Positions 6,359-61,440 of a stretch of 64,000 nt of DNA are shown here, one piece after another. Source of the stretch: Candidatus Schekmanbacteria bacterium (GTDB lineage: Bacteria > Schekmanbacteria > GWA2-38-11 > J061); the NCBI GenBank assembly GCA_016219965.1, contig JACRJM010000003.1, positions 130,299 to 194,298 of the forward strand. The letters are read 5' to 3'. The position numbers were made by a program, and so were the translations under genes. The notes below the pieces were generated by a model. The model did not search any database and was not told the origin of the DNA. It was given only the letters and a program-made list of their open reading frames with translations. Position 1 is the first letter of the stretch. The number at the start of each line of letters is the position of its first letter.

Positions 6359-6838
6359 ATGGAATCAATTATATCGCTTATGTCAGAAACTGCAGTTGAG
6401 GTGCTTAAAAAAATGGCTTTTTTAGATGTAGAACACATAAGGAATGATGAACCCATTTCAAAAGCTATAGAAAATGTCCACATGTGTTCAATGATCATGC
6501 TCGACGGTACGTTAAAAGGCTCTATCGTTTTTCATTGCTCTGATAAACTTGCGAAACAGGTGACATGCGCTCTTTTAGGGGAAGATATGGCAAATGACAT
6601 AGCAGATATGGATATAAAAGACGCAATAGGTGAAGTTACAAATGTAATTGCAGGAAATGTTAAAAACAAGATTTCGAATTTAGGTCATAGCTTTTCTCTT
6701 TCTTCTCCTAAAGTTTTGGAATGGGGAGAATATGTGATCGAACTTAAGACTAAAGCACGCCAGGGGATTATGGAATTTACCTCGGGAAAAGAAACTTTTT
6801 TTATTGAGTTGTTATCAAGTAATGGGTCTCACGATTAG
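6359..6838 (+). CDS. cheX: CheX-type CheY-P phosphatase (CheC/CheX/FliY family)
   Basis: Contains the D-x3-E-x2-N-x21-P active-site motif (DAIGEVTNVIAGN…SSP) in a protein of about 155 aa. Confidence 0.7.
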   Translation: MESIISLMSETAVEVLKKMAFLDVEHIRNDEPISKAIENVHMCSMIMLDGTLKGSIVFHCSDKLAKQVTCALLGEDMANDIADMDIKDAIGEVTNVIAGNVKNKISNLGHSFSLSSPKVLEWGEYVIELKTKARQGIMEFTSGKETFFIELLSSNGSHD

Positions 6839-6851
6839 ATAAACAAAACAT

Positions 6852-7877
6852 GTGAAAAGTGACATGGCCAATCCTGTTGAGAAAATAAAAGAAACTATTG
6901 ATGAAATCCTTGACTCTGTTGAGAATGAAATAGTTACTATTTTCAATGCATTGTTTGGAAAGCTTGTCAGTTGTTTTCTAGCAGGTGTGTCAGTTACAAC
7001 CGCCAAGGAATTCCTCGATCCACGAAAAGGTAAAAAAAGCTTCCTTATAGATCTTAATACTAATGAAGAAATAAAGGGAGATATCTTTATCTGTCTCGAC
7101 CACAAAGAAGCTTGCTGGGTTTCAGCAATTATGAATGGCCTTGCTGAATCAATGGCAGATGAAAAAGAAAAAAGCGGCCAATTTGATGAAAATGATATTG
7201 ATGCTGTTTCAGAAGTTGGCAATCAATTAGCTGGAAAATTGAATTTTGTCCTCAAGCCTATTGCCAAGAAAAAACTACATTTTATTAAAACCAGGCATTT
7301 TTTGACTGAAGAGATGCAGGGAGAAGACAATAAAATACCTCTTGATGAAGAAGAAACTGTAATTATCCCTAAATTCTCTTTTTCCTCTGAGGGGAAGGAA
7401 ATAGGATTTATTTATGTAATGTTCCCGGTAAACTTTGCTTCCCTGATGGTTGGGATACCTCTCAGTGGCGACACTCAAGAAAAAGATAATGAAAGTGAAT
7501 CTGCTAAATTAAGAAAGATAATCCTCCTTTGCCAGCAAATTGATAGCAAGGAAGAAGCACTTTATAATATGGTTGCAGATAAGTTTTCGGCAAGCTTTAT
7601 TACCTGTAAGCTTAACTCTGCTCTTGAGGAAAACCCAGAAATTAAAGAAGCAGATCTGATTTTCGTCGACTCCTATGATGATCCAAACAGTGGGATAGAC
7701 ATATGTAAACAGCTTATAGCGTTAAAAAGCAGTAAAAAAAAATCAATAATTCTCAGTTCAAAAAATATAACAAAAGATCTTTTGCTCCAGGCTATATCTA
7801 CCGGAATTTGTGACATCATAGTAAAGCCCGCTTCTACAAAAACAATTATGCAGAAAGTACAAGCGAATATAGGGTGA
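6852..7877 (+). CDS. CheC/CheX-like domain fused to a degenerate receiver (pseudo-REC) domain; start uncertain (GTG 6852 or ATG 6864)
   Basis: The N-terminal half contains a D-x3-E-x2-N motif (DAVSEVGNQLAG). The C-terminal roughly 120 aa have REC topology (…DLIFVD…, IILSS, IIVKP) but lack the N-terminal acidic pair, which is replaced by IILLCQQ. Confidence 0.45.
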   Translation: MKSDMANPVEKIKETIDEILDSVENEIVTIFNALFGKLVSCFLAGVSVTTAKEFLDPRKGKKSFLIDLNTNEEIKGDIFICLDHKEACWVSAIMNGLAESMADEKEKSGQFDENDIDAVSEVGNQLAGKLNFVLKPIAKKKLHFIKTRHFLTEEMQGEDNKIPLDEEETVIIPKFSFSSEGKEIGFIYVMFPVNFASLMVGIPLSGDTQEKDNESESAKLRKIILLCQQIDSKEEALYNMVADKFSASFITCKLNSALEENPEIKEADLIFVDSYDDPNSGIDICKQLIALKSSKKKSIILSSKNITKDLLLQAISTGICDIIVKPASTKTIMQKVQANIG

Positions 7878-7881
7878 GGTT

Positions 7882-10629
7882 ATGGCATTAAATATAGAAA
7901 AAATAAATGAGATTGTTAATCAGCTTTCAATATCTTTGATTTCTGAAAACGGCAATTTTTTTTCTATTCCGCAAGTTAAAGCAGAAATAATAGAACTTCT
8001 AGAGTTACTCAATGCAGGCACTACCCCTGAGCTGTCAAATATATGCAATGAGATTAACGCAGTTATTCAGAAAGCTTCAGAATGTAAGAGTAATAAAAAT
8101 ATAGGTGATCCGACAAAAAGAATTTCAGAACTATTAATAAGTCTTCAGAATCTGATTCTCTCAACTCCACACCGGTCAGACAGCGATATATCTAAAAAGA
8201 ACACTCAATCATCTGGAGAGCCACATTTTGCCGTTCCAGAACATCAAAAAAAGGATGAAGAGATGCTTAATATACCTGATGACGAAAGAGAAATTTATGG
8301 AGATTTTGTTACAGAGAGTCTTGAACATATCCAACAGATAGAAAAAGGAATATTGGAACTTGAGAACAACAGTGCTGATGCAGAGATAATCAACAGTATG
8401 TTCCGTTGTTTTCATTCCATTAAGGGAAATTCCGGTTTTTTAAATCTTAAAGTGATGAACAATTTATCTCATAAGTGTGAGGGACTCCTTGACAAGCTCA
8501 GAAGCAAAAAAATGAACTATACTGAAGAGATTACAGATATTGTTCTTGAAGCAATTGACATTCTCAAGGGTATGCTCGGTGATATTGGTGCTGCGGTTCG
8601 CGATAAGCAACCGCTTAATTGTCACTATGAAATTGAAACATTTCTACAAAAAATAGAAGATGTTAAAAATCCTATCATTACTAAGGATGTCACTAAACCA
8701 TCAGATGTAAATAAATCTGATTCTGCTGAGATTAAACAACCCCAGGAGGCCACTTGTGATGAATTCAATGTTAACTCTTTAGTTAATAGGGAAGAGGAAG
8801 AGTTTATTCATCTTCCAGAGGACTCTGATATTAGCCTGATTGGTGAATTTATAACAGAAAGCAATGATAATATAGCTGGTGCTGAGGCCGCTCTTCTTTC
8901 TCTTGAAACTCAACCTGACGACATGGAAGCAGTTAACACATGCTTTCGAGCTTTTCATACAATGAAGGGAACTGCCGGTTTTATTGGCATAAAACCTATG
9001 GCAGAATTTGCTCATCACGCTGAATCACTTCTCAGTCGTATCCGTGACCGCAAAATCTCCTATACTCCCGGATATGCAGATCTGGCACTGCGTTCGATAG
9101 ATATGTTCAAGGAATTAATACAATCCCTACAGACTGTCTTAGGAGGAGAAACTGCAAGTAAACCTTCAGGCTACACTGAATTAATTCATGATTTAATGAA
9201 CCCTGAATCTGTCACTGCAAAGAATTCTATGCCAGAGATTGTCACTCCAAGGCTCGGAGATATTCTTGTTGCTGATGGAAAGGCTGACCGGAATGAAGTC
9301 GAAAAGGCTGCGTCATCTAAGAGCGAAGAACCAATAGGAGTAAAATTGGTAAAAAATGGCGCTGCATCCCTTCAGGATGTTGCAGGTGCCATACGTAAAC
9401 AACAATCTACTGCTGCTGGTGACAGCAACATTTCGGATACATCTGTACGAGTCAGGACAGACCGTCTTGACCGTCTCATAGATATGGTGGGTGAGCTTGT
9501 AATATCTCAGTCTATGGTTTCGCAGGATATAAGTGTAGCAGGCAATGGCTATCATGAGTTGTCAAAGAAAATTTCTCATACAGGAAAAATAGTAAGAGAG
9601 TTGCAGGATCTAACTATGTCAATGAGAATGGTGCCTCTTAAACCCACTTTCCAGAAAATGACACGACTCATAAGGGATCTTTCACGTAAGAGCGGAAAGA
9701 TTGTCAATTTCATTACACAGGGTGATGATACCGAGATAGACAGGAATATGGTTGATGTCATTAACGATCCTCTTGTACATATGCTTCGCAATGCTGCGGA
9801 CCATGGTGTTGAGTTGCCGGAAATCAGGGAAAAGAATGGGAAAGCAAAAGAAGGGACTATTTCTCTCTCAGCATACCATTCAGGCGGAAATGTTGTGATT
9901 GAAATTAAGGATGACGGCAAAGGAATTGACAGGGAAAAGGTAATTAAAAAAGCTGTTGCTGCCGGTCTTATTGACCCGGGGAAAAATCTGTCTGACAGCG
10001 AGGTGTTTAACCTTATATTTGAACCAGGCTTTTCTACAGCAGATAAAGTAACGGATATTTCGGGCAGAGGAGTTGGGATGGATGTAGTTAAGCGAGGAGT
10101 AGAGTCATTAAGGGGAAAGATTAATCTGACATCAGTTGCAGGCAAGGGAAGTACTTTTTCCATGTATCTGCCGCTCACAATGGCAATAACTGACGGTATG
10201 CTTGTTAAAGTAGGAAGCGAACGCTATCTCATTCCTACAGTGAATATTTCCATGAGTTTTAGACCTGATGCCAAACTCCTTTTTACGGTTGGTGAAAAAG
10301 GAGAAATTGTAATGCTTCGCGACAATCCTGTTCCAATATTCCGATTGCACAGTCTGTTTGGGATTAAAGGCGCAGTTGAAAATCCTTTAGAAGCATTGCT
10401 TGTTATCATAGATGACGGAAATCAACAGAATGCACTTCTTGTTGATGAATTATTGGGTCAGCATCAGGTTGTGGCAAAACCGCTGGGTAACTGGTTAGGA
10501 CAGATCCCCGGAGTATCTGGTGGCGCAATCCTGGGAGATGGACATGTCGGATTAATTCTTGACTCATCAGATCTTATTGCGGCGGCAAAACAAAATAGTA
10601 CTGCAAGTGATTGCAGATATGCAGCATAG
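7882..10629 (+). CDS. cheA: Chemotaxis histidine kinase CheA with two N-terminal Hpt (P1) domains
   Basis: Two Hpt motifs (HSIKGNSGFL and HTMKGTAGFI). Dimerisation domain (RLDRLIDMVGELVISQSM), HATPase_c (HMLRNAADHG…GRGVGMDVV) and a C-terminal CheW-like domain follow. Confidence 0.9.
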   Translation: MALNIEKINEIVNQLSISLISENGNFFSIPQVKAEIIELLELLNAGTTPELSNICNEINAVIQKASECKSNKNIGDPTKRISELLISLQNLILSTPHRSDSDISKKNTQSSGEPHFAVPEHQKKDEEMLNIPDDEREIYGDFVTESLEHIQQIEKGILELENNSADAEIINSMFRCFHSIKGNSGFLNLKVMNNLSHKCEGLLDKLRSKKMNYTEEITDIVLEAIDILKGMLGDIGAAVRDKQPLNCHYEIETFLQKIEDVKNPIITKDVTKPSDVNKSDSAEIKQPQEATCDEFNVNSLVNREEEEFIHLPEDSDISLIGEFITESNDNIAGAEAALLSLETQPDDMEAVNTCFRAFHTMKGTAGFIGIKPMAEFAHHAESLLSRIRDRKISYTPGYADLALRSIDMFKELIQSLQTVLGGETASKPSGYTELIHDLMNPESVTAKNSMPEIVTPRLGDILVADGKADRNEVEKAASSKSEEPIGVKLVKNGAASLQDVAGAIRKQQSTAAGDSNISDTSVRVRTDRLDRLIDMVGELVISQSMVSQDISVAGNGYHELSKKISHTGKIVRELQDLTMSMRMVPLKPTFQKMTRLIRDLSRKSGKIVNFITQGDDTEIDRNMVDVINDPLVHMLRNAADHGVELPEIREKNGKAKEGTISLSAYHSGGNVVIEIKDDGKGIDREKVIKKAVAAGLIDPGKNLSDSEVFNLIFEPGFSTADKVTDISGRGVGMDVVKRGVESLRGKINLTSVAGKGSTFSMYLPLTMAITDGMLVKVGSERYLIPTVNISMSFRPDAKLLFTVGEKGEIVMLRDNPVPIFRLHSLFGIKGAVENPLEALLVIIDDGNQQNALLVDELLGQHQVVAKPLGNWLGQIPGVSGGAILGDGHVGLILDSSDLIAAAKQNSTASDCRYAA

Positions 10630-10669
10630 ATACTTTTTAAAATGACAAAATTTAAAGAGGGAAAGAAAC

Positions 10670-11182
10670 ATGTTAGGTGGAAATGAAGGGATAAATGAAA
10701 ACCGAGATAAGGGATTTAATTCCGAAAAGGCTGCTGGCAAGTCTGGCGAAACAAAGAAATTTCTCAGCTTTTTTCTTGGAACAGAAGAATACGGAATAGA
10801 CATTGTTAGTGTCCACGAGATCATTGGTGTATTACCCATAACTTCAATTCCATACACTTCAAATTTTATCAAGGGTGTAATTAATCTTCGTGGGAAGATA
10901 ATTCCGGTAATTGACTTAAGGCTCAAGTTTGAAATGAGTGAAGCTGAATATACAGAAGAAACATGCATAATAGTTACCCAGTCGGAAAACTTACAAGTTG
11001 GTGTCATCGTAGACAAAGTATCAGAGGTTCTAGATATTTCACCCTCTCAAATTGAGGATGTGCCATCTTTTGGAATAAGAACAAATATTGATTACCTTTT
11101 AGGCATCTGTAACATCAGGGGAGGAGTCAAACTTTTGCTTGATATAGATAATGTACTTTCAAGCAAGGCAGCTTCAGCATAA
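10670..11182 (+). CDS. cheW: Chemotaxis coupling protein CheW
   Basis: 170 aa with a CheW fold (FLSFFLGTEEYGIDIVSVHEII…NLRGKIIPVIDLR). Confidence 0.85.
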   Translation: MLGGNEGINENRDKGFNSEKAAGKSGETKKFLSFFLGTEEYGIDIVSVHEIIGVLPITSIPYTSNFIKGVINLRGKIIPVIDLRLKFEMSEAEYTEETCIIVTQSENLQVGVIVDKVSEVLDISPSQIEDVPSFGIRTNIDYLLGICNIRGGVKLLLDIDNVLSSKAASA

Positions 11183-11252
11183 ATACATCGAAACATCTAT
11201 AAAGAATAATTTTGGCAATGAATAAAAATGAATAAAATGGAGGGGAATAGTT

Positions 11253-13736
11253 ATGTTGAATAGAATCAAATCAAGTCTGTCTATTAAAATTTGTACTCTC
11301 GTTGCCAGCGTTTTGACCATAGTGCTCGCGACAACCGGTTATTTCCAGATTAAGGACAAGGAAAGTATGTTTATGAACGACTTAATCGAAGAGTCCTCTA
11401 ACATGACGTCAGTTTTAGATTCATCCCTACATCAGGGAATGATGAAGGCTGATATGGAAGGAATTGACGATGTGTTAAACAAGACAGGCCAGATAAAAAA
11501 AATAAAAAGGGCCTACATACTTTCATCCTCAGGCAAAGTTTTCAAATCTTCAGATAAAACACTGGTTGGGAAAACTGAAGGACAGTCAGCGATTGAAAAG
11601 ATTAAAGGGACAAGGCAGAATTTTTTTGAACTAATGAAAACTTCTGACGGTAATCCTTATGTAATGGGATTAAGCGCAATTTCGACTGAAAAAGGGTGCA
11701 TCGAGTGTCACGCAGAGTTTAAGGAAGGGGAAACAATCGGCTACCTTGGGCTTGATACATGGGCTATAGATAATTTCAAAGATCTTGAGGCGAGCACAAC
11801 AAAGACCGTTCTTTCTTATGCGATTGCCGTTATGCTTCTCCTCGCTACAATAATTTTTATTATCAGGAAGTCTGTAAATCCTATTGTCAATATTTCCAGG
11901 GCCGCCAGCTTAATTTCAAAAGGTGACTTAAATCAGTCAGTAGATTTTCATTCTGATGATGAGGTAGGAGCTCTTGCAAATTCTTTCCGTGAACTCATCG
12001 ATTACATCAAGAAAGTGAGCGATGCAGCAGATCAGTTAAGCAAGGGGAAACTGAAGATTGATATTGAGATGAAAAGTGACAAGGATGAATTAAATAAATC
12101 CTTTCAGCAATTACAGATAACCATGAATAATCTTGTTACAGAAATTGATCAGATGATCCAATGGGCTAAGGATGGAGAACTTCAAAAACGCGGTGATCCA
12201 TCTAAGTTTGAAGGAGGTTATCGCAAATTAATAAAGAGCACAAATGAAATGCTTGATGCGGTAATCGAGCCTGTGAACGACGCCTCCAATGTTCTGGAGC
12301 GAATAGCAGAAAAGGATCTTACGGCGCAGATAACCGGAGACTATAAAGGTGACCATGCTAAGATCAAAAATTCTCTGAACAGAGCTGTTTTCAATCTAAG
12401 CAACGGGCTTGAACAGGTTGCTGTAGGAGCAGACCAGGTTTCATCCGCATCTTCAGAGATAGGAAGCGGAAGCCAGTCGCTGGCTCAGAGTGCGTCTGAA
12501 CAGGCTGGTTCGCTTCAGGAGATATCGAGTAGTTTGCATGAGATAGCATCAATGACAAGACAAAACAGGGAAAATTCCAAAGAGGCAGAAGCCCTTTCTA
12601 GTGCAGCCAAGTCCAGTGCCAATAAGGGTGTAGAAAGCATGAAGCGACTCTCCGATGCCATTAACAAGATTAAGGCATCTTCAGACGAAACTGCAAAGAT
12701 TGTAAAAACCATTGATGAGATAGCATTTCAGACAAATCTTCTTGCCCTAAATGCTGCAGTTGAGGCTGCCAGAGCTGGAGATGCAGGAAAAGGATTTGCC
12801 GTAGTTGCTGAAGAAGTAAGAAATCTTGCAATGAGAAGCGCTGAAGCTGCGAAAAACACTGCTGCCATGATTGAGGGTTCAGTGAAAAAGTCTGAAGATG
12901 GCGTTGTGATCAATAAGGAAGTTTTAGCCAATTTAGAAGAAATAAATGGGAACGTGACTAAAGTCAGTGAGGTTATGTCTGAGATATCTGTCGCATCAGA
13001 GCAGCAAAGTCAGGGGATAGAGCAGCTAAACACTGCTGTGGAGCAGTTAAACCAGGTTACCCAGCATAATGCGTCATATTCAGAGGAATCTGCAAGTGCA
13101 GCACAGGAACTTTCCGGACAGGCATCTGAAATGAAAAATTTAGTTAATAGCTTTAAACTTGGAAAGTTTAGCAACAACGATAGTACTGATATGGAAAATA
13201 ATAGTAGAAGACTACGCACAACAGGGACAAGAACTGTAAGCGCAATGCCGGAACACCGAAAAACAGGAAGCTCTGCCAGCTCATCTGTTGACTTTTCTTC
13301 AGCAAGAACCAAGCACAGACTCTGGATTACAAGACTCAGGTCTTTTTTAGACGGCAAGGAATCGCTTACTGAGCAACAGATTGTCTCACATAAGGACTGT
13401 GACCTTGGAAAATGGATCTATGCGGAAGGCATTAAAAAATATGGAAACATTGCCCAGTTCCAGCAGCTTGAAAAAATACATGAGGATTTTCATTCAAAGA
13501 TAAAGACTGTTAAACAGCATAGAGATTCAGGAGATATTCAGCTTGCTGAACAGGCTTTTGATAAAATGATGCCAATCTCTGAACATGTAATTTCTCTGCT
13601 TAATGATATTGAGCAGAAATTAAAATCTCCCAATTCAAGTACTGTTTCTCAACAGGGAGAGATGGAATCAGATGGTTTAGGAAAAATAGTTCCCATGCGT
13701 AATGATATGGAAAAAGCTTTCTTGCAGTCTTTTTAA
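11253..13736 (+). CDS. Methyl-accepting chemotaxis protein with a periplasmic CxxCH (c-type heme) sensor domain, HAMP repeats and a C-terminal CZB zinc-binding domain
   Basis: TM1 at residues 12-32 and TM2 at about 186-208. The periplasmic domain of about 150 aa contains CIECH. HAMP and MCP signalling domains (…[31 protein letters not shown]…) follow. The C-terminal HRLWITRL…CDLGKWIY…HEDFH matches the CZB Hx3W…CxLGKW…H motif. Confidence 0.85.
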
Positions 13737-13798
13737 TGCTTAACGCTGTGTAACTATTTTGACTGGAATATTTTTCTGGGGACTTTTGGAGGAAAAAA

Positions 13799-14650
13799 AT
13801 GAGCAATATTTCCGCAAACGAAACTGCACACAGTATTGCAACTTTTCATCTCAAAGAAGCCGAGTTTAAAAAAATTTGCAGGATCGTATACAGTGTATGC
13901 GGAATAGATCTGCACGAAGGGAAGGAAGAACTGGTAAAATCGCGCCTTTCTAAGCGCCTCAGGGCTTTGAATATAAATAGCTTTGAGAATTATCTTACTT
14001 TTATTGAAAAAGAGCCTTCAAAAAAAGAATTAAATTATATGGTAGATATATTGACTACCAATAAAACATATTTTTTCCGGGAATCTCAGCACTTTGACCT
14101 TCTTAAACAAAAAGTCATTCCAAAACTTGATCATTCAAAAATCAGGTTCTGGAGTGCAGGGTGTTCGTCCGGAGAAGAACCATACACTCTTTCCATTCTT
14201 TTAAGGGAAGAAATACCTGATATTGATAAAATTGATGTAAAAATTCTTGCTACAGATATATCCTCAAGGGTTCTCGAAAAAGCAAATTCAGCAGTTTATG
14301 AAAAAGAAGCCTTCAATGATCTTCCTCAGGCATATTTAAGAAAATATTTCACCAGCGTTGGATCTAACTCGCATCAGTCTTTCCGTGTAAATGAGAACAT
14401 AATGAAAACAGTTTATTTTGCACAGCTAAATCTCATGGAACAGTGGCCCATGGCAGGAAAGTTTGATGTCATATTTTGCAGGAATGTTATGATTTATTTT
14501 GACAGACCTACCAGAGAAAAACTGATTAACCGTTTTTGGGATTACTTAGTTCCCGGAGGATATCTTTTTGTAGGACATTCTGAAAGCCTCACAGGACTTT
14601 CGCATCAATTTGGTTATGTTCAGCCAGCGGTTTATATTAAATCCAATTAA
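13799..14650 (+). CDS. cheR: Chemotaxis protein methyltransferase CheR
   Basis: CheR N-terminal and SAM-methyltransferase domains (RFWSAGCSSGEEPYTLSILL). Confidence 0.85.
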   Translation: MSNISANETAHSIATFHLKEAEFKKICRIVYSVCGIDLHEGKEELVKSRLSKRLRALNINSFENYLTFIEKEPSKKELNYMVDILTTNKTYFFRESQHFDLLKQKVIPKLDHSKIRFWSAGCSSGEEPYTLSILLREEIPDIDKIDVKILATDISSRVLEKANSAVYEKEAFNDLPQAYLRKYFTSVGSNSHQSFRVNENIMKTVYFAQLNLMEQWPMAGKFDVIFCRNVMIYFDRPTREKLINRFWDYLVPGGYLFVGHSESLTGLSHQFGYVQPAVYIKSN

Positions 14651-14672
14651 AATAAAGATATGAGGTTTTGTA

Positions 14673-15197
14673 GTGATATATACTGTTGGCATTGCTGATA
14701 TGAAGATTTCGACTCAACATTCTGACATTATAATTACCTATGCTCTTGGAAGTTGTCTTGGAATTACAATTCATGACCCTGTGGCCTGCGTAGGTGCTAT
14801 GCTTCATATCATGCTACCTACTTCTTCAATAGACATACAAAAGGCAGCACAGAATCCCTGCATGTTTGTAGATACAGGAGTGCCCAAACTTTTTAATGAT
14901 TGTTACAAGTTTGGAGCGCGCAAAGAAAGACTTGTCGTGACAGTTGCCGGAGGCGCAAGTCCATTAAGCGTATCCGGGAATGATCATTTTCAGATTGGCA
15001 ACAGGAACTTTATAACATTAAGAAAACTTCTCTGGCATAATGGAGCGCTGCTTAAAGCATATGACGTCGGTGGAACAGTTGCTCGTACCATGTCTCTTGA
15101 GATAGGGACGGGCAAAGTAGTTGTGAAACATAGTGGCGGCGAAACAAAAGTAATTAACATTGACGTCGAAGATTGCAACGTCGGAAGGAGAAATTAA
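14673..15197 (+). CDS. cheD: Chemoreceptor glutamine deamidase CheD
   Basis: Motif ALGSCLGITIHDPVACVGAMLHIMLP; GTG start. Confidence 0.8.
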   Translation: MIYTVGIADMKISTQHSDIIITYALGSCLGITIHDPVACVGAMLHIMLPTSSIDIQKAAQNPCMFVDTGVPKLFNDCYKFGARKERLVVTVAGGASPLSVSGNDHFQIGNRNFITLRKLLWHNGALLKAYDVGGTVARTMSLEIGTGKVVVKHSGGETKVINIDVEDCNVGRRN

Positions 15198-15202
15198 CCT
15201 TT

Positions 15203-15592
15203 ATGCTAAACATACTGATTGTAGACGACAGCGCAGTTATGCGTGCAATGATAATCAAGACATTTAAGCTTTGTGGTATTCCCTTTGGTGAAATAATGGA
15301 AGCTTCAAACGGAAAAGAAGGGATAGATGTTATTGACACCAAGTGGGTTGACCTCATTCTTGCTGATATCAATATGCCGGTTATGAATGGCATAGAGATG
15401 ATAGATAAAATACAAAAAAATCCTCAAACTGCAGATACTCCCATAATAGTGATATCAACGGAAAGCAGCCAACCCAGGATAGAAGCCCTCAAAAACAAGG
15501 GCGTACACTTTGTAAAAAAACCATTTACTCCTGAAATTCTGAGAGAAACCATTACAAATATTATAGGAATAAAATTCAATGGAAAAGATTGA
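15203..15592 (+). CDS. CheY-like single-domain response regulator (second copy)
   Basis: REC domain MLNILIVDDSAVMRA…ILADINMPVMNG…KKP. I start it at the internal ATG 15203, which has a GGAGG RBS, rather than the ORF-track 15173. Confidence 0.8.
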   Translation: MLNILIVDDSAVMRAMIIKTFKLCGIPFGEIMEASNGKEGIDVIDTKWVDLILADINMPVMNGIEMIDKIQKNPQTADTPIIVISTESSQPRIEALKNKGVHFVKKPFTPEILRETITNIIGIKFNGKD

Positions 15593-16049
15593 AAATATAT
15601 TACTGAATGCGGCTACTAATGCTTTTGAACAGTTATGCTTCATGTTTAGTTCTCCTGATGATGAAGATACTGAAAAAAATTTACGTACCTGGGTAGCGTC
15701 GATTGTGAATTTTTCCGGCCCATTTTCTGGTAAATTAATTGTAAGAGCGCACAAAGGGTTGCTTAATGTAATTGCTTCAAACATGCTGGGGGAAGAGGCA
15801 TCAACAGCCAAACAACAGATAGATGCGCTTGGGGAAGTTTCAAATGTCATATGCGGAAGCGTTCTCCCTCAGATTGCCGGAGTAGCAGAGGTTTTTAATC
15901 TTGAAGCTCCGAAAATTCTTCAAAATTCTGAACCTGTATCACCTCAAAATGGAGAAAAAATGGTCTTTGTCAGCATGACTTTGGATGAGGGACGAGTTGA
16001 ATTACAACTTTTCATTAAAGAGGGATTAGAGCTTTTAAAGGAGGTCTAA
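15579..16049 (+). CDS. CheX-type phosphatase (second copy)
   Basis: DALGEVSNVICGS…EAP matches the D-x3-E-x2-N-x21-P motif. Overlaps the preceding cheY by 14 nt. Confidence 0.7.
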   Translation: MEKIENILLNAATNAFEQLCFMFSSPDDEDTEKNLRTWVASIVNFSGPFSGKLIVRAHKGLLNVIASNMLGEEASTAKQQIDALGEVSNVICGSVLPQIAGVAEVFNLEAPKILQNSEPVSPQNGEKMVFVSMTLDEGRVELQLFIKEGLELLKEV

Positions 16050-16050
16050 T

Positions 16051-17112
16051 GTGATCCGTGTACTGGTCGTAGACGATTCAGCGGTTGTAAGGAAAGTATT
16101 GACTGAAGAACTTTCCAAATATGAAGGGATTGAAGTTGTCGGAAGTGCAATAGATCCATATATTGCTCGTGAAAAAATCATCAGCCTTCGTCCTGATGTC
16201 ATAACCCTTGATTTGGAAATGCCAAGGATGGATGGCTTATCGTTTCTTTCAAAGTTAATGAAATTTTATCCATTACCTGTCATAGTTGTAAGTTCTCTTA
16301 CACCTGAAAACAGCGCTACCGCGATTAAGGCTCTTGAACTTGGAGCAATTGATGTAATATGTAAACCTGGTTCTGCTTATTCCATACCCAATGTATCTCA
16401 TCGTTTAGTAACTGCCATACGTGCTGCCGCAACTGCCAAAGTTGTCAAAATGCAGGATGTTAGCGAGAGCCAATCTTCTGTTGCATCGATAAGCGGATTT
16501 CAGCTTCAAACTACACATAGAATTATAGCTATTGGAGCATCAACTGGAGGAACAAAGGCAATAGAAGCTGTTCTGACTAAATTGCCTCCTACAACGCCAG
16601 GTATAGTTATAGTGCAACACATGCCTGAATATTTTACCGCAGGATTCGCAGAAAGACTTAACCAGATATGCAGAATGGAGGTAAGGGAGGCCAAGAACAA
16701 TGACCCTGTTGTACCGGGCGTTGTTCTGATTGCACCGGGTAATTACCATATGGTTTTGGAAAAATCAGGTGCTCGTTATTTCGTAAAGATAAAAGATGGC
16801 CCCTATGTCCACTATCAGCGTCCAAGCGTGGATGTACTGTTCCATTCTGTTGCAGCTAATGCCGGAAGAAATGCAGTCGGCGCCATTTTAACAGGAATGG
16901 GGGCTGATGGAGCTCAGGGACTTTTGAAAATGAGAGAAAACGGAGCACATACTATTGCTCAAGATGAACAATCATGTGTTGTCTTTGGAATGCCAAAAGA
17001 AGCTATAAATCTTGGGGCAGCTGATGAAATAGTTCCACTGCAGGACGTAGCACAGGCATTACTAAATGCCCTGGTTGATAACGATAATATAAGACAGGTT
17101 AAGACAGCCTGA
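16051..17112 (+). CDS. cheB: Chemotaxis response regulator protein-glutamate methylesterase CheB
   Basis: REC domain plus CheB methylesterase domain (IAIGASTGGTKAIEAVL…GMGADG). GTG start with AAAGGAGG RBS. Confidence 0.85.
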   Translation: MIRVLVVDDSAVVRKVLTEELSKYEGIEVVGSAIDPYIAREKIISLRPDVITLDLEMPRMDGLSFLSKLMKFYPLPVIVVSSLTPENSATAIKALELGAIDVICKPGSAYSIPNVSHRLVTAIRAAATAKVVKMQDVSESQSSVASISGFQLQTTHRIIAIGASTGGTKAIEAVLTKLPPTTPGIVIVQHMPEYFTAGFAERLNQICRMEVREAKNNDPVVPGVVLIAPGNYHMVLEKSGARYFVKIKDGPYVHYQRPSVDVLFHSVAANAGRNAVGAILTGMGADGAQGLLKMRENGAHTIAQDEQSCVVFGMPKEAINLGAADEIVPLQDVAQALLNALVDNDNIRQVKTA

Positions 17113-17190
17113 GAAGTAAAATATGTTTAAAAACTACAATAATGCGGAATGTAGCATGTATACCACTATATTCAAAGGAGGTAAAAAACC

Positions 17191-18045
17191 ATGAGCAGAC
17201 TTGATGAAATCATGGAGAAAGTAGATAAGTTACCTCCTTTTTCGAATGTTGTTGGCAGGGCAGCAGCCTTATTCAGCAACCCTGAAATAGAGCCAGAAGA
17301 AATAGTAGATGTAATTAAATTTGAACCTGCCATTACTGCAAACGTCCTGAAAATATGTAATTCTGCTTATTATGGCCTTATGAGAAAAGTAAGTTCCCTC
17401 AAGGAAGCAGCAACATATCTCGGGACCGAAGAACTCCTGAAAATTGCACTGGCAAACGGCATGGCTGATGTATTGAAAGACAATATAAAGGGCTATGATC
17501 TTAAAGAAGGGGAACTCTTTAAACATTCTATCGGATGTGCAATAGCATCCCAGTTGTTATCAAAAAAACTTTTTGTTCAGAATTCGAATATACTTTTTAC
17601 AGGATCTCTTTTGCATGATATCGGCAAGCTCATCTTAAGTGAATTTGTAAATGAGGAATACAATAATATACATAGGATGGTTGTTGAAAAACAATGTTCA
17701 TTCATAGAGGCTGAACGAGAGATACTTAACACAGATCATGCGGAGATAGGTGGTTTTTTAGCTGATGAGTGGAAATTTCCTGAGGAGCTCAAGGCAATAA
17801 TAAAATATCATCATGAGCCTGCAAAAGGCCCTGAATCGCAGCAACAGAATATCGAAATAGTTCATGTAAGCGATCTGTTGTGTCTTATATCCGGGATAGG
17901 GATAGGATCTGATGGTATGGCTTACAGGGCATCGCTCCAGCAAATTAACATTATAAAGCTTATTGACAGTAGCCTTGAATCACTTATATGCGACCTTATT
18001 ACAGAACTTGAGAAAGTGAGTACTTCATACAATCTCAGCAATTGA
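17191..18045 (+). CDS. HDOD domain protein
   Basis: HD-related output domain (…NVLKICNSAYYGLMRKVSSLKEAATYLG…HDIGKLIL). Last gene of the che operon. Confidence 0.7.
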   Translation: MSRLDEIMEKVDKLPPFSNVVGRAAALFSNPEIEPEEIVDVIKFEPAITANVLKICNSAYYGLMRKVSSLKEAATYLGTEELLKIALANGMADVLKDNIKGYDLKEGELFKHSIGCAIASQLLSKKLFVQNSNILFTGSLLHDIGKLILSEFVNEEYNNIHRMVVEKQCSFIEAEREILNTDHAEIGGFLADEWKFPEELKAIIKYHHEPAKGPESQQQNIEIVHVSDLLCLISGIGIGSDGMAYRASLQQINIIKLIDSSLESLICDLITELEKVSTSYNLSN

Positions 18046-39599: not shown

Positions 39600-40271
39600 A
39601 TGGTAAGGGAAATTGAGCTTTTAAAGAATGTTCCTATTTTCTCTGGTATTTCAGACAAAGAAATAGGCTTGGTTACAAGTATCCTCCGTAAGAGGTCTTT
39701 TCCGAAGAGCAGTGTCGTTATTCATAAAGGTGATGAAGGAGAAGCTCTCTATATTATTCTTTCCGGTAAAGTAAAGGTCACCTTAATAAGTGATGCAGGA
39801 AAGGAGATAATACTCGCAATATTAAGAGAAGGAAATTTCTTCGGAGAGATGTCTCTTCTAAACAACGAGCCAACGTCCGCAAATGTAGTAACTGCAGAGG
39901 ATTCTGTTTTTTTAACTATCTACAGGGATGACTTCAACTACATTTTGAGAAAGGACCCGGGGATAGCCCTTAATCTTCTTAAGCATATGTCCCTGAGACT
40001 GAAGATTGCCGACAAGAAGATAGGAAGTCTTGCCCTGCTTGATGTTTGCGGCAGAATAGCAAACCTTTTCATCGATATGGCAAAAGAAGAAAAACATGAG
40101 ATATATATAGTTGAAAAGATTACTCACGCAGAGATTGCCCACATGATAGGCTCCACAAGAGAAGTGGTAAGCCGTGCCATAAAATGCCTTAAGGATAGCG
40201 GTTATATCAAAGTGCTAAGAGACAAAATTATCTTAGATAAGGATCTGAAGCTCAAGATAGATGATTTTTAA
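39600..40271 (+). CDS. Crp/Fnr-family transcriptional regulator
   Basis: cNMP-binding domain (GEALYIILSGKV…FGEMSLL) plus a C-terminal HTH (…REVVSRAIKCLK). An extended -10 (TGTATAAT) lies at 39507-39514. Confidence 0.8.
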   Translation: MVREIELLKNVPIFSGISDKEIGLVTSILRKRSFPKSSVVIHKGDEGEALYIILSGKVKVTLISDAGKEIILAILREGNFFGEMSLLNNEPTSANVVTAEDSVFLTIYRDDFNYILRKDPGIALNLLKHMSLRLKIADKKIGSLALLDVCGRIANLFIDMAKEEKHEIYIVEKITHAEIAHMIGSTREVVSRAIKCLKDSGYIKVLRDKIILDKDLKLKIDDF

Positions 40272-40367
40272 CCGCAAGTGATAAATAATACAGCATCATA
40301 GTGTGTTAAGTCCTATCTTTTGATTAATGAATTACTATAATTAATATATGCCAATATTGGGTTTTCG

Positions 40368-40446
40368 AAAAAGGCAAACTCCGTGTAAGCGGAAGACGCA
40401 AAGCCAACGGATCCTAAAAAGTTAGGATGGCCGGGTCGCCGAAGAA
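40368..40446 (+). ncRNA. Candidate c-di-GMP-I (GEMM) riboswitch aptamer
   Basis: GGCAAAC is followed by a hairpin with a GUAA (GNRA) loop (CCGU-GUAA-GCGG). Next comes the hallmark GACGCAAAGCC, a hairpin containing CCUAAA…GGAUGG (tetraloop-receptor-like), and 3' CCGGGUCGCCGA (compare Vc2 CGGGGUUACCGA). A putative expression-platform hairpin (gaagaaacc…ccuguuucuuc) lies at 40441-40475. The gene starts at 40590. Confidence 0.5.
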
Positions 40447-40589
40447 ACCGGGAGAATATGATAACCTGTTTCTTCATAAACCGAGAAATGGGTTATATTT
40501 TTTTGATAAGGAGGTGATTAAGTTCAAAAGAAAATTTAGTATTAACAAAAAAATTTAATAAATTTTTTTATAATTTGGAGGAAAAATAT

Positions 40590-42116
40590 ATGAAGCAAAG
40601 AATTACAATAATGGCAATAATAGCGGTTTTTGTAATGGCTTTTTGCCTTGGAGAGATTATCAATGCCAAACAGCCGGGAGGACAACCTTCAATAAAGTCC
40701 GTAAAAGTTACGCCTGTAAAAGTTAAAGTTAAAACAGATAAAACTAAGAAATTTAAAGCTGTAGTAAAAGCAAAAGGAGGTGCGGATAAAAGTGTCAGTT
40801 GGTATGTCAATGACGTACTCGGCGGAGATAGTTCCGTAGGAACTATAACACAAAGCAATCCGGCTGTTTACACTGCTCCGGCAGCACCCCCAAATCCAGC
40901 GACAGTAACTATTAAGGCTGTTAGCACTTCAGACACTTTAAAATATGCGACATCAAAGGTTAAAATAGAACTTTCAACTAAGAAGAAGGCAAAAATAAAA
41001 GGAGTCGCAGCAACGGGTGCTCCTATAGCCAACGGAACAGTTGTAATAACTGATGCGACAGGAAAGGAAGTAGGAACAGATGAGACATCTGCCGATGGTT
41101 CCTATTCCGTAAACTATCAAAAAAAATACCAGCTTCCATTTCTTATTAAAGTTACCAGTGAAGATGGTACTGTTACCCTTTACAGTGTAACCAATGATCC
41201 AACACAACCTGCAAACATAACACCTTTTACGGACAAGGCTGTTGAAACACTGGTTGTACAAAATGGAGGAGATGTCAGCGACGGCGAAGTTGAAGACGAT
41301 ATTGAAGAACTAGCGGGCCAGACTGCAGACATGGACAGCGCCATATCCAAAGCGCTTGAAACAATCAAAAATGCGTTGGGGCTTTCAACTGTAGATATCA
41401 ATTTTGTAACTTCCAAACTTGATACTGAAGATCCCGATGATTTTTATGATGATCTGCTTGATGCTGTTGAATCCTCGATTGAAGACGCAGGAAAAGATGA
41501 CATTGACGATCTGATCGAAGTAGATGACGATTATATCAAAGTCGATAAGACAATAACTTTAAAATATGGCGAATACGGGGTTAAAACAGATGATGGTGAA
41601 GAACTCGAGGACGAATCTCCGGAAGACCTATCTGAAGATGAGCAACCTGAGATAGAGGGAACTATCAGCGCTGTTGATCCAATCAGCATGACCATAACAG
41701 TAAACAGCAATACAATAGGGGTTACAGACACAACCGTGATAAAAATGGAAGATATTGACGGCAATGATACGGTTGTAACTTTTAGCGCATTGGCAGAAGG
41801 CCAATTTGTAAAGATTGAGGCAAAATTTGAAGGAGATTTATTGGTTGCAGCAAAGATCAAGATAAAAAATGAATCAGAAGATGATGATGAGGATGAATTC
41901 GAGGCGGCAATAACACAGAAGAACGATGAAGCTTCGACCATTGTTGTCGACAATGCCCTGATATATGTGACTGTTGACACAGTGATAGATATCAATGATA
42001 CCAGCGGGGCTTTTTCTGACCTCGCTGTGGGACAGGAGGTTGAAGTTAAAACCCAGCTTGTAGATTTTAAACTTGTCGCTGTTAAAATAGAAGTAAAAGA
42101 TGAAGACAGCAACTAA
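40590..42116 (+). CDS. Secreted protein: signal peptide + Big_2-like Ig domain + highly acidic region + two C-terminal DUF5666-like beta domains
   Basis: I start it at ATG 40590 (MKQRITIMAIIAVFVMA…), which has a GGAGG RBS 8 nt upstream. The ORF-track TTG at 40575 overlaps the RBS. VKVTPVKVKVKTDKTKKFKAVVKAKGG…VSWYVND is Big_2-like. The D/E-rich segment spans about 230-360. Two repeated modules of about 65 aa (…TVVTFSALAEGQFVKIEAKF… and …AFSDLAVGQEVEVKTQL…) end the protein. Confidence 0.55.
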   Translation: MKQRITIMAIIAVFVMAFCLGEIINAKQPGGQPSIKSVKVTPVKVKVKTDKTKKFKAVVKAKGGADKSVSWYVNDVLGGDSSVGTITQSNPAVYTAPAAPPNPATVTIKAVSTSDTLKYATSKVKIELSTKKKAKIKGVAATGAPIANGTVVITDATGKEVGTDETSADGSYSVNYQKKYQLPFLIKVTSEDGTVTLYSVTNDPTQPANITPFTDKAVETLVVQNGGDVSDGEVEDDIEELAGQTADMDSAISKALETIKNALGLSTVDINFVTSKLDTEDPDDFYDDLLDAVESSIEDAGKDDIDDLIEVDDDYIKVDKTITLKYGEYGVKTDDGEELEDESPEDLSEDEQPEIEGTISAVDPISMTITVNSNTIGVTDTTVIKMEDIDGNDTVVTFSALAEGQFVKIEAKFEGDLLVAAKIKIKNESEDDDEDEFEAAITQKNDEASTIVVDNALIYVTVDTVIDINDTSGAFSDLAVGQEVEVKTQLVDFKLVAVKIEVKDEDSN

Positions 42117-42175: not shown

Positions 42176-42205
42176 TTGACCTTCTTAGCATATCTTTATT
42201 ATAAT
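42176..42205 (+). promoter_or_regulatory. Sigma-70-like promoter (TTGACC-N18-TATAAT)
   Basis: -35 TTGACC at 42176-42181 and -10 TATAAT at 42200-42205. About 45 nt upstream of the AlaDH-family gene. Confidence 0.45.
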
Positions 42206-47213: not shown

Positions 47214-47432
47214 ATGCTCGGTAAAGAAGAGCTCAAGACAGTTATTTCAAAGCAGAAAACCATATTAAAAGAAAAGATGAAGGAAGAAGGGGACATAGAC
47301 CTCACAGAACTGAGAAAATGTAAAAAAGACCTCAAACGTTCCCAGAGAAAACTTCGCTCAATTCTTGCAGTAGAAGAAAGAGAAAAAATTAAAAAGGAAA
47401 AAAAGAAAAAAGAAGCAGAACAGACAGCTTAA
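47214..47432 (+). CDS. Small K/E-rich hypothetical protein (predicted coiled coil)
   Basis: 72 aa. Strong RBS (GAGGGGGG) 7 nt upstream of the ATG. Confidence 0.4.
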   Translation: MLGKEELKTVISKQKTILKEKMKEEGDIDLTELRKCKKDLKRSQRKLRSILAVEEREKIKKEKKKKEAEQTA

Positions 47433-48013
47433 CTTCTCTCCATATCTGCTATAGCTGAATTAATAAGACTTTCAGCGCTTTCGCCGTCAGTTGGATAAGT
47501 AGCAACTCCTATCTTTATGTCTGGCCATTTTTTCTCTTCTGCAATCTTGAGGAGCCTGTCTTTGATAATATTTGCCGAATTGTCTGCAGTTATATGTGAA
47601 AGCACGACTTTGTATCTTCTGTAATCAACCTGCAAAAATTGATCTGATTTCCTTATCTCCTTTTCAACATGCTCAACATTCACAGTTCTGCCCGGGAGGA
47701 AATAATGTATTCCTCTTCCCACAGAGTCTTCAATATCCATTATCATTATGCCTGTCCTGTGACCGTGCCTTTTTGCACGTTCAATCTCAGAGACAAGCAA
47801 ATTCTTTGTCATAGTTTTTTGCGCTGAATAGAAAGTTTCCCTCTGTCTTATCATGAGGAGATAGAGAAGTATTCCAACTACGGCTATTGCGCCAATGGCC
47901 GGCAGTAAAATGATAGCAAATGGGGTATCATTCAAATCATTTTGGGTACAGCTGGATATAATTGCCGGTGTTAATAAGGATAAACCAAAGAAACATTTCG
48001 TTGCTGATTTCAT
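47429..48013 (-). CDS. Membrane-anchored degenerate GGDEF-domain protein
   Basis: N-terminal TM helix. The domain has GGDEF topology (…MIMDIEDS…, …KIGVATYPTDGESAESLINSAIADM…), but the GG[DE]EF active site is replaced by YRRYKV. Confidence 0.5.
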   Translation of the reverse strand: MKSATKCFFGLSLLTPAIISSCTQNDLNDTPFAIILLPAIGAIAVVGILLYLLMIRQRETFYSAQKTMTKNLLVSEIERAKRHGHRTGIMIMDIEDSVGRGIHYFLPGRTVNVEHVEKEIRKSDQFLQVDYRRYKVVLSHITADNSANIIKDRLLKIAEEKKWPDIKIGVATYPTDGESAESLINSAIADMERS

Positions 48014-59241: not shown

Positions 59242-61440
59242 GTGAGAAAAGGACACATATTAGTTGTTGATGATGAAAACAACATAGGCACAACCCTTGA
59301 AGGGATTCTTACTGACGAAGGGTATGAAGTGTCGAAGGCTGAAAACGGGCTTCAGGCACTTGACATGATAAAGCGGGTCCCTCCGGATGTGGTATTGCTT
59401 GATATCTGGATGCCGGGAATGGACGGGATAGAAGTCTTAAAAAGCATAAAAGAACATGAGAGCGATACTGAGGTGGTTATAATGTCAGGGCATGGCTCTA
59501 TTGATACCGCCGTAAGGGCCATCAAGCTGGGTGCATTTGATTTCATCGAGAAACCTCTTTCGCTTGACTCCCTGCTTTCTACAATCAACCATGCCCTTGA
59601 AAGACAGAGGACAGCAAAAGAAAGCCAGGAACTTAAAAGAGAACTTCTTCAGCGGTATGAGCTTATAGGTGAGAATCCGAAAATACAGGAGGCACGAAAG
59701 CTTATCAGCGCAGCCGCAATCTCAAATGCAGGGGTATTGATAGAAGGGGAACATGGCACAGGCAAAGAACTTGTGGCAAGGACCATTCATATCAACAGCA
59801 TCAGACGCAACAGGCCTTTTGTAAAAGTAAATTGTGCTGCTCTTCCTGATGATATAATAGGGAATGAAATGTTCGGCTGCGACTCAAACAACGGAGGAGG
59901 AATAAGCAAAAGGGGAAAATTTGAGCTTGCAGAAGACGGCACTCTCTTCCTCGACGGCATAGAAAAGCTGGACATCAATGTTCAGGAGACAATCCTGAAA
60001 GTTCTTCAGACAGGAAAATTCATGCGGATTAACGGGAAGAGGCTTCTCCCTGTCAACTTCAGGATAATAGCTGCAAGCGAAAAGGACATTCAGAAACTGA
60101 TTGAAGAGAACAAATTTTCCAGTGAGCTCTATTCATTCATATCTACCTTTGTCATATATCTGCCCCCCCTGCGCGACAGAAAGGATGACATCCCGTCACT
60201 TGTAAATTACTTTAGCCGCGAGCTTACACAGGATTACGGCAGAGGTGTTAAGGAAATCGACGACAATGCCATGGCAGCCCTTGTGACTTTTGACTGGCCC
60301 GGCAATGTGAAAGAAATCAAGAATATTATCGAGCGTCTGGCAATATCTGTTCCCACAGGGAGGATATCTGCCGACGATATCCCTGTTTCGATCCGCGGAA
60401 TAACGCCAAAGACTTCCCAGTACCAGTACAACGGCTACTCATTGAAAGACGCGAGACAGAAATGGGAAAAGGAATACCTCATTCACTGTCTGACCATGAC
60501 AGGATGGGACCTCAAGAAGACCGCAAAGGAAATGGGAATAACCTGCAAGACCCTTGAGAAGCACATAAAATCCTTCGGTCTTAAAAAACCTAAGAAAGAG
60601 ACAAGCACTGCTGCAAGAATCCAGCGCACACTAAAGACAAGCGTAGTCCTCTGCGGTCAGGGGCTCCATTCCGGACTTAAGACAGGTCTGATACTTGTCC
60701 CCCAGAATCCAAACGCCGGTATCGTATTTGCTAATGTTTCTACCGGAGAAACCATGACAGCAGTTCTTGATAACGTGGAATCAACAGACTATGCCACATC
60801 GTTAAAGTGCGGCAAGTCCCATGTAAAAACAATAGAACATATCATGGCTGTGCTTAATATTTACGGGATAAACAACCTTCTCATAAAGATAACCGACGAG
60901 GTTCCCATAATGGATGGTTCATCCCTTGATTTCTGTGAACTTATTGAGGATGGGGGCATTCTTGAGCAGGATGAGTTTATAGAGGAAATAGTCATAGACA
61001 AGGTCATAGTTCACGGCAAGGAAAGTCCCAAGGAAAAGTATATTAAAATAGAGCCCTGCGATAAGTTTTCCGTGAAGTATATAATGGATTATCCTCCGCC
61101 CATCGGCAAACAGGAAATGGATTATGTTTTCAAGGGGGCCGAGGATTTTAAAAAGAACATTGCCCCTGCCAGAACCTTCGGTTTCCTCAAGGACGTAGAA
61201 TACCTTGAGAAGAAGGGGCTGATCAGCGGAGGAAAGCTTCACAATGTCATCCTCCTTGATAACGAGAAGGTAATAAACACTGAGCTGAGGTTCAAGAATG
61301 AGTTTGCAAGGCACAAGGTGCTCGACATTATCGGCGATTTCTATCTCCTCGGCAGACCGCTAAGGGGCAAAATTACCGCGCACCTTACAGGCCATTCAGA
61401 AAACATAGCTCTTCTTAATAAGATACGTTCTATCTACTGA
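59242..61440 (+). CDS. NtrX-like response regulator (REC–sigma54-type AAA+–HTH) fused in frame to a complete LpxC (UDP-3-O-acyl-GlcNAc deacetylase) domain
   Basis: Residues 1-457 carry REC (ILVVDDE…LLDIWMPGMDG), Walker A GEHGTGKE and a Fis-type HTH. Residues about 470-732 align over their whole length with E. coli LpxC: IQRTLK…GQGLHSG, TIEHIMAV (zinc-ligand EH), RTFGF, ARHKVLDIIGD, TGHSEN. There is no stop codon and no in-frame start codon at the junction. Confidence 0.7.
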   Translation: MRKGHILVVDDENNIGTTLEGILTDEGYEVSKAENGLQALDMIKRVPPDVVLLDIWMPGMDGIEVLKSIKEHESDTEVVIMSGHGSIDTAVRAIKLGAFDFIEKPLSLDSLLSTINHALERQRTAKESQELKRELLQRYELIGENPKIQEARKLISAAAISNAGVLIEGEHGTGKELVARTIHINSIRRNRPFVKVNCAALPDDIIGNEMFGCDSNNGGGISKRGKFELAEDGTLFLDGIEKLDINVQETILKVLQTGKFMRINGKRLLPVNFRIIAASEKDIQKLIEENKFSSELYSFISTFVIYLPPLRDRKDDIPSLVNYFSRELTQDYGRGVKEIDDNAMAALVTFDWPGNVKEIKNIIERLAISVPTGRISADDIPVSIRGITPKTSQYQYNGYSLKDARQKWEKEYLIHCLTMTGWDLKKTAKEMGITCKTLEKHIKSFGLKKPKKETSTAARIQRTLKTSVVLCGQGLHSGLKTGLILVPQNPNAGIVFANVSTGETMTAVLDNVESTDYATSLKCGKSHVKTIEHIMAVLNIYGINNLLIKITDEVPIMDGSSLDFCELIEDGGILEQDEFIEEIVIDKVIVHGKESPKEKYIKIEPCDKFSVKYIMDYPPPIGKQEMDYVFKGAEDFKKNIAPARTFGFLKDVEYLEKKGLISGGKLHNVILLDNEKVINTELRFKNEFARHKVLDIIGDFYLLGRPLRGKITAHLTGHSENIALLNKIRSIY

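Follow-up and report, generated by a model that had tools for sequence, protein, structure and literature searches.

The locus described here raises the question of whether the 5′ leader of a gene for a secreted protein contains a genuine c-di-GMP riboswitch and, if so, which ligand it would bind and in which direction it would switch. The window, by which we mean the whole stretch of 64,000 nucleotides that was analysed, comes from a Candidatus Schekmanbacteria bacterium, and a first-pass annotation made from the letters alone had proposed a candidate c-di-GMP-I (GEMM) riboswitch upstream of this gene. We consider it likely that the element is a class-I c-di-GMP riboswitch in the monocistronic leader of a secreted acidic DUF5666 gene, and that it operates as a transcriptional OFF switch.

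The proposed riboswitch was borne out by a covariance-model search, the check that the first-pass annotation had named and one that was clearly passed. In a cmscan of the whole 64-kb window against 4227 Rfam families, RF01051 (c-di-GMP-I) matched at 40363-40443 on the forward strand with 64.6 bits (E 2.4e-10), almost 30 bits over its gathering score of 35, and the match runs end to end along the model (positions 1-87 of 87). RF01051 alone gave an above-threshold match in the 64 kb, and relaxing the cut-off to E <= 1 revealed no additional aptamer copy in the window. The GEMM hallmarks do follow one another in the right order, namely AAAAAG-GCAAAC, a hairpin with a GUAA tetraloop, GACGCAAAGCC, the P3 hairpin and GCCGAA. 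The span originally given, 40368-40505, covers the aptamer core and the terminator, but the true element occupies 40360-40504. By its sequence it is a member of a well-known class, here in uncultured Schekmanbacteria. The features of the locus, with + denoting the forward strand, are as follows.

39600-40271, +: gene for a CRP/FNR-family regulator (Pfam cNMP_binding, E 2.7e-26; HTH_Crp_2, E 3.1e-13)
40277-40292, no strand assigned: CRP-like palindrome AGTGATAAATAATACA, 7/10 matches to TGTGA-N6-TCACA
40336-40341, +: candidate -10 hexamer TATAAT, read from the sequence, a partly conserved block in alignment A1
40360-40504, +: complete riboswitch element, beginning with the 5′ strand of P1 at 40360
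40360-40367, +: 5′ strand of P1, GGUUUUCG, pairing with 40440-40449
40363-40443, +: c-di-GMP-I (GEMM-I) aptamer, from the RF01051 match and from pairing across related loci
40374-40399, +: P2 hairpin, with the GUAA tetraloop at 40385-40388
40402-40437, +: P3 hairpin, a short continuous helix
40440-40449, +: switching sequence CGAAGAAACC, able to serve in P1 (as 3′ strand) or in the anti-terminator (as 5′ strand)
40461-40504, +: intrinsic terminator from the terminator scan, hairpin 40461-40496 and U7 tract 40498-40504
40577-40581, +: GGAGG as the Shine-Dalgarno sequence, 8 nt 5′ of the ATG, read from the sequence
40590-42116, +: putatively regulated gene, 508 aa, with an ATG start, a signal peptide and DUF5666

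The assignment is strengthened by comparison with related loci. Full-length orthologues of the protein, with 88%, 58% and 44% identity, are encoded on contigs L002, L003 and L004, respectively, and a scan of genome contigs contributed one further locus, L006 (Candidatus Schekmanbacteria GWA2_38_11), encoding a paralogue in which the N-terminal module is the sole shared part. At each of the four, a GEMM-I aptamer occupies the corresponding place, with covariance-model matches at L002:231-313, L003:3820-3903, L004:5826-5902 and L006:2776-2856. In the alignment of these four and the window copy, 90.7% of the cells of the specified structure (30 pairs) are paired, against 33-51% in slid controls in which the partners were shifted by 1-3 columns, and both-side compensatory changes occur at 7 base pairs; the sample is five sequences, and MAFFT placed the P1 helix of L006 one column off. 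Within P1, pairing is retained in L002, L003 and L004 through changes from U-A to U-G, from U-G to C-G and from G-C to C-G or U-A. The three-helix architecture of P1, P2 and P3 is thus backed by covariation.

The aptamer is located in the 5′ leader on the coding strand, 147 nt 5′ of the ATG at 40590. Crystal structures of Vc2 place G20, A47 and C92 in contact with the ligand (PMC4744006, PMC5888326, PMC6140456), and these nucleotides are all present in the window as 40373, 40400 and 40439 and identical in the four related loci. Likewise, the interhelical C-G pair that PMC4744006 gives as universal among GEMM RNAs would be formed here, as a tertiary contact, by C44 (C40397, in GAC) and G83 (G40430, bulged from P3), and neither nucleotide varies among the five copies. 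The 3′ strand of P1 is CGAAGAAACC, from which AA at 40442-40443 is bulged, and the duplex has an energy of -8.0 kcal/mol. P2 bears the GUAA tetraloop, and the columns of the 11-nt tetraloop receptor of P3 are deleted in the Rfam alignment. GEMM-I representatives that lack the receptor were reportedly known to Sudarsan et al. in 2008, so the receptor is not strictly defining.

How could such an aptamer control the gene? The terminator hairpin (14 bp, 8-nt loop, -14.8 kcal/mol) begins 12 nt after P1 and has no overlap with the aptamer. Part of the P1 3′ strand, GAAGAAAC (40441-40448), is perfectly complementary to GUUUCUUC (40468-40475) in the 5′ arm of the terminator, and the two complementarities are mutually exclusive. 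The resulting anti-terminator duplex, at -13.6 kcal/mol, is stronger than P1 alone, and in a transcript ending at 40478, before the 3′ arm of the terminator, the anti-terminator is the minimum-energy fold. For the full-length transcript without ligand, the minimum-energy fold is already P1 plus terminator, and read-through in the ligand-free state must therefore be kinetic, by a predicted trapping of the nascent RNA.

The layout is retained in three of the four related loci. In L003, L004 and L006, as in the window, the 3′ strand of P1 is complementary to the 5′ arm of the terminator; the 5′ strand of P1 is moreover complementary to the 3′ arm, with a match of -10.9 in L003. The terminators of these three loci (-19 to -24 kcal/mol) are stronger than that of the window, and their anti-terminators are weak (-5.9 to -8.1 kcal/mol). 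As both strands of P1 match the terminator arms, a closed P1 frees the terminator and the logic is OFF either way.

On the reading that we prefer, transcription would start near 40348 and the aptamer (P1 40360-67/40440-49, P2 40374-99, P3 40402-37) would fold during synthesis. Binding of c-di-GMP via G40373, A40400 and C40439 would lock P1, making GAAGAAACC (40440-48) unavailable, so that the hairpin at 40461-96 could form, RNA polymerase would terminate in the U-tract at 40498-504 and no protein would be made. In the absence of ligand, P1 would be weaker than the helix between GAAGAAAC and GUUUCUUC (40441-48 with 40468-75), and this helix would occupy the 5′ arm of the terminator, allowing read-through and expression of the gene. 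From this OFF logic it follows that the protein is a predicted product of the low-c-di-GMP state.

The opposite direction, in which the same aptamer would let c-di-GMP induce a surface protein as for an adhesin of the sessile state, has a biological precedent, as surface and adhesin genes are often c-di-GMP-induced, for example in the case of Bc2, 5′ of cap, the gene for a collagen adhesion protein (PMC4933901); it also agrees with a no-ligand minimum-energy fold that already includes the terminator. We nevertheless find an ON switch unlikely. Such a design does not fit because no terminator arm lies inside the aptamer: with the terminator at 40461-96, ligand binding cannot sequester one of its arms, and the complementarity between P1 strands and terminator arms, by which P1 closure frees the terminator, has the same geometry in four loci.

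With regard to the ligand, position 20 points to c-di-GMP rather than 3′3′-cGAMP, since all copies of the Schekmanbacteria type carry G20. A G at this position selects against cGAMP and A20 is the signature of 3′3′-cGAMP riboswitches; for Vc2, a G20 RNA, binding is in the picomolar range with c-di-GMP and near 10 uM with cGAMP (PMC6140456). Where GEMM-Ib RNAs have A20, the window has G40373. That the lineage makes the ligand is indirectly suggested by the conservation of all contacts across five diverged loci.

The Rfam labels require some caution. On the window, RF03167 (c-di-GMP-I-GGC) scored 56.8 bits, under its gathering score of 59, and L002, L003, L004 and L006 pass that threshold with 63-69 bits, so that Rfam clan competition gives them the RF03167 label. 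We take 'GGC' to refer to positions 20, 47 and 92, in view of the printed consensus of the RF03167 model. At the equivalent of A47, the RF03167 consensus is GCGAA, while all five sequences have GCAAA, as does RF01051; the variant G (consensus GACGCGAA) is absent, all five reading GC-A-AA, and the cmscan match line is blank at this position. Judged by the defining nucleotide, the four related aptamers are canonical despite their label. The RF03167 model appears not to be specific for its variant nucleotide.

A wider view of the aptamer backbone came from a pattern for its 3′ half, which found 51 metagenomic loci (L008-L058), all with A47 and C92 because the pattern fixed both positions. A20 occurs at 13 of the 51 with the same 3′ half. 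At 22 of the loci, some with G20 and others with A20, the aptamer is followed after 17-35 nt by the gene for a multihaem c-type cytochrome of about 410-440 aa, and no terminator was found at these 22; in L052, the aptamer precedes a response-regulator/HD-GYP protein. Sensors of the c-di-GMP (G20) and of the cGAMP (A20) type thus share one backbone, and position 20 is what tells them apart. As a separate observation, about 15 of the metagenomic loci (L009, L014, L016, L020, L021, L026, L028, L029, L034, L035, L038, L039, L040, L047 and L050) have a nearly identical terminator, ACCCAUCUCCGGCAACAGAGAUGGGU plus U6, located 23-27 nt past the aptamer, and no convincing downstream ORF with a Shine-Dalgarno sequence was found at them.

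These relatives also provide an argument for a different ligand, be it 3′3′-cGAMP, the ligand of GEMM-Ib, or whatever the 'GGC' variant class binds: the A20 loci share the identical 3′ half and the missing tetraloop receptor, the backbone stands 5′ of multihaem cytochromes, which is the cGAMP context in Geobacter, where a GEMM riboswitch for cGAMP controls the PgcA gene (PMC5732950), and RF03167 is the best-scoring model for the four related loci. Yet every Schekmanbacteria-type copy combines G20 with A47 and has neither A20 nor the G47 of RF03167, the window itself stays below the RF03167 gathering score, and the affinities of G20-bearing Vc2 differ widely in favour of c-di-GMP, and we hold another ligand to be very unlikely.

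A further possibility is that the window riboswitch has weakened to the point where it no longer regulates, leaving expression constitutive or dependent solely on the promoter and on the CRP-family regulator next to it. Two pairs of the window copy, C40379/A40394 and A40402/C40437, are non-canonical, a trait not shared by the orthologues, and the second is at the base of P3 beside the binding pocket. Of the terminators compared, that of the window has the lowest stability and the highest AU content. In L002, the closest orthologous locus, the aptamer is kept and no terminator was found; comparison of L002:300-395 with 40440-40590 of the window locates the missing terminator region and suggests a deletion of about 58 nt that joined GAAGAAA to GGAGGU, and in that strain the gene may be constitutive or differently regulated. 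On the other hand, the window aptamer scores far above threshold, and the locus retains both every ligand contact and the perfect 8-nt complementarity of anti-terminator and terminator. The A-C variant at the P3 base recurs in 3 of 56 related aptamers, in unrelated contexts, and for this reason looks tolerated. Decay of the window copy thus strikes us as quite improbable. Control of translation by sequestration of the ribosome-binding site, which would suit L002 and the many metagenomic relatives that have no terminator and an ORF starting 17-35 nt downstream, is scarcely credible in the window, where the Shine-Dalgarno sequence lies about 130 nt past the aptamer, beyond the terminator, and the leader contains no anti-SD segment of the CCUCC type.

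We noted in addition a Shine-Dalgarno-like AAGGAGGUGA at 40508-40517, right after the U-tract, with no plausible start codon behind it; L002 has the similar AAAGGAGGUCA. A second promoter between terminator and gene (TATAAT at 40569-74) was considered and rejected, having no -35 element and a start inside the Shine-Dalgarno sequence.

Upstream of the riboswitch, the candidate -10 hexamer at 40336-40341 would probably place the transcription start near 40348, about 10 nt before P1; the consensus promoter scan did not report this hexamer because it has no good -35. The CRP/FNR-family gene that precedes it is syntenic in L002 and L003, and we regard its product as a neighbour and possible co-regulator that is not part of the riboswitch. 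CRP-like palindromes are found not only in the window, but also at L003:3729-3744 (9/10) and L002:139-154 (7/10), in each case as the best-scoring site and 88.5-93.5 nt 5′ of G20. A score of at least 7 occurs at 0.4% of window positions, and the window site alone is not significant. In L004 and L006, no comparable site was found, and the three loci with a palindrome are those with the CRP/FNR-family gene immediately upstream. It is tempting to speculate that the palindrome is an operator for the adjacent regulator, which would add control at the level of the promoter.

The protein encoded downstream has the same sequence as HZA77_03000 in NCBI, which belongs to a Candidatus Schekmanbacteria MAG, and the GGAGG Shine-Dalgarno sequence of its gene is conserved in L002, L003, L004 and L006. 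It carries a Sec-type signal peptide and two DUF5666 domains (Pfam, E 1.9e-14). The N-terminal module (module 1, aa 28-132) is basic and Ig-like, with a pI of 10.0, the motif WYVNDVLGG and sub-threshold Big_2 and I-set matches (E about 3e-3), and it is followed by a second Ig-like module (aa 133-222) with a sub-threshold match to Big_6 (E 6e-5). Asp and Glu make up 35% of a helical region and 20% of the mature protein, which has a pI of 4.15 and no cysteines. An AlphaFold model built on a 4-sequence alignment had a mean pLDDT of 47 and was confident solely for the DUF5666 beta-domains. The initial description as a secreted, acidic, Ig-like protein related to Big_2 and DUF5666 consequently stands with respect to secretion, acidity, Ig-like modules and DUF5666, with the Big_2 assignment remaining sub-threshold. 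It had also been suggested that the protein might be of the adhesin type, a typical GEMM target; the protein is indeed predicted to be secreted, but the c-di-GMP-induced adhesin that this implies fits poorly with the predicted OFF platform, and to call the protein an adhesin is a guess.

In a profile comparison, module 2 (aa 137-221; 40998-41252) aligned with PDB 9i0d, 'Lipoprotein cytochrome c', over residues 9-93 of that entry (E 7.6e-8). We suspected that 9i0d was Geobacter PgcA; no identical protein was found with the 9i0d fragment, and the link was dropped. The L006 paralogue has two copies of module 1, followed by CBM_4_9 (E 3.6e-16) and a dockerin-like tail. From locus to locus, the orthologues are followed by different genes, and in the window a strong promoter-like site (42176-42205) stands ahead of the next gene; for both reasons the riboswitch probably controls this one gene.

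The first-pass annotation had further argued that the window itself speaks for c-di-GMP signalling, naming an HDOD protein and a degenerate GGDEF protein. When every large ORF of the window was compared with Pfam, the two were recovered as follows.

17191-18045: HDOD protein (E 1.2e-51), at the end of a chemotaxis operon
47429-48013, - strand: degenerate GGDEF-like membrane protein of 194 aa, 22.8 bits against a gathering score of 23.8

Both proteins are thus present, but the same comparison of large ORFs found no catalytic GGDEF, EAL, HD-GYP or PilZ protein in the window, and the context lends the argument weak support. In the GGDEF-like protein, DYRRY replaces GGDEF and an RxxD motif (RKSD) is found at the usual spacing of an I-site, so that the protein may act as a receptor for c-di-GMP and not as a cyclase. 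A protein with GAF and HD-GYP-type domains is encoded about 1 kb from the L004 orthologue.

Two other regions of the window deserve mention in their own right. The chemotaxis operon is complete (6359-18045) and encodes CheX, CheA, CheW, an MCP, CheR, CheD, CheX and CheB directly ahead of the HDOD protein; its MCP carries a CZB zinc-binding domain. At 59242-61440 on the forward strand, a 732-aa ORF joins an NtrC-type regulator (aa 1-443; Response_reg, Sigma54_activat and HTH_8) to a complete LpxC domain (aa 461-728), which represents either an unusual fusion, a lost stop codon or an assembly error.

Placed among known systems, the window aptamer resembles V. cholerae Vc2 and RF01051 in its three-helix junction, G20/A47/C92, C44-G83, a GNRA-type P2 tetraloop and its place in a coding-strand 5′ UTR, and differs from them in lacking the 11-nt P3 receptor and in the A-C mismatch at the base of P3. 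A functional precedent is offered by C. difficile, where class-I c-di-GMP riboswitches are transcriptional OFF switches, among them those 5′ of a calcium-binding adhesion protein and of a secreted protease (PMC11477304). Those of flgB, PPEP-1/zmpI and CD2797 likewise act through an intrinsic terminator and in part on secreted or surface targets (PMC11477304); the window, by contrast, belongs to another phylum and has a DUF5666 target, and its OFF logic is deduced from the nucleotide sequence. With Geobacter GEMM-Ib (Gs1761, 5′ of pgcA) it shares a near-identical receptor-less backbone and extracellular-protein targets, but A20 there is G20 here (PMC6140456) and the window target is not a cytochrome. 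RF03167 has the same overall shape, including P1 and a short P3, and departs from the five sequences in its GCGAA consensus.

The finding extends a known riboswitch class to a candidate phylum without cultured members, for which no c-di-GMP biology was described in the literature that we searched, and it leaves the understanding of how this class works unchanged. It also carries a caution for annotation, as Rfam clan competition calls close relatives 'GGC' despite a canonical A47, and the ligand should be assigned by position 20 and not by the best-scoring model.

For the uncharacterised DUF5666 family, the locus provides a regulatory handle in the form of predicted expression at low c-di-GMP. 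More tentatively, and with rather more doubt than conviction, we propose that the GEMM-I riboswitches of Schekmanbacteria define a small regulon of c-di-GMP-repressed secreted proteins that share the WYVNDVLGG module, the members of which may include the acidic DUF5666 proteins and the CBM_4_9/dockerin-like paralogue. If this is true, the adjacent CRP/FNR-family regulator might add a further layer of control via the conserved palindrome about 90 nt 5′ of the aptamer, and DUF5666 would for the first time be placed in a physiological setting, in the role of a surface, matrix or mineral-binding factor produced at low c-di-GMP.
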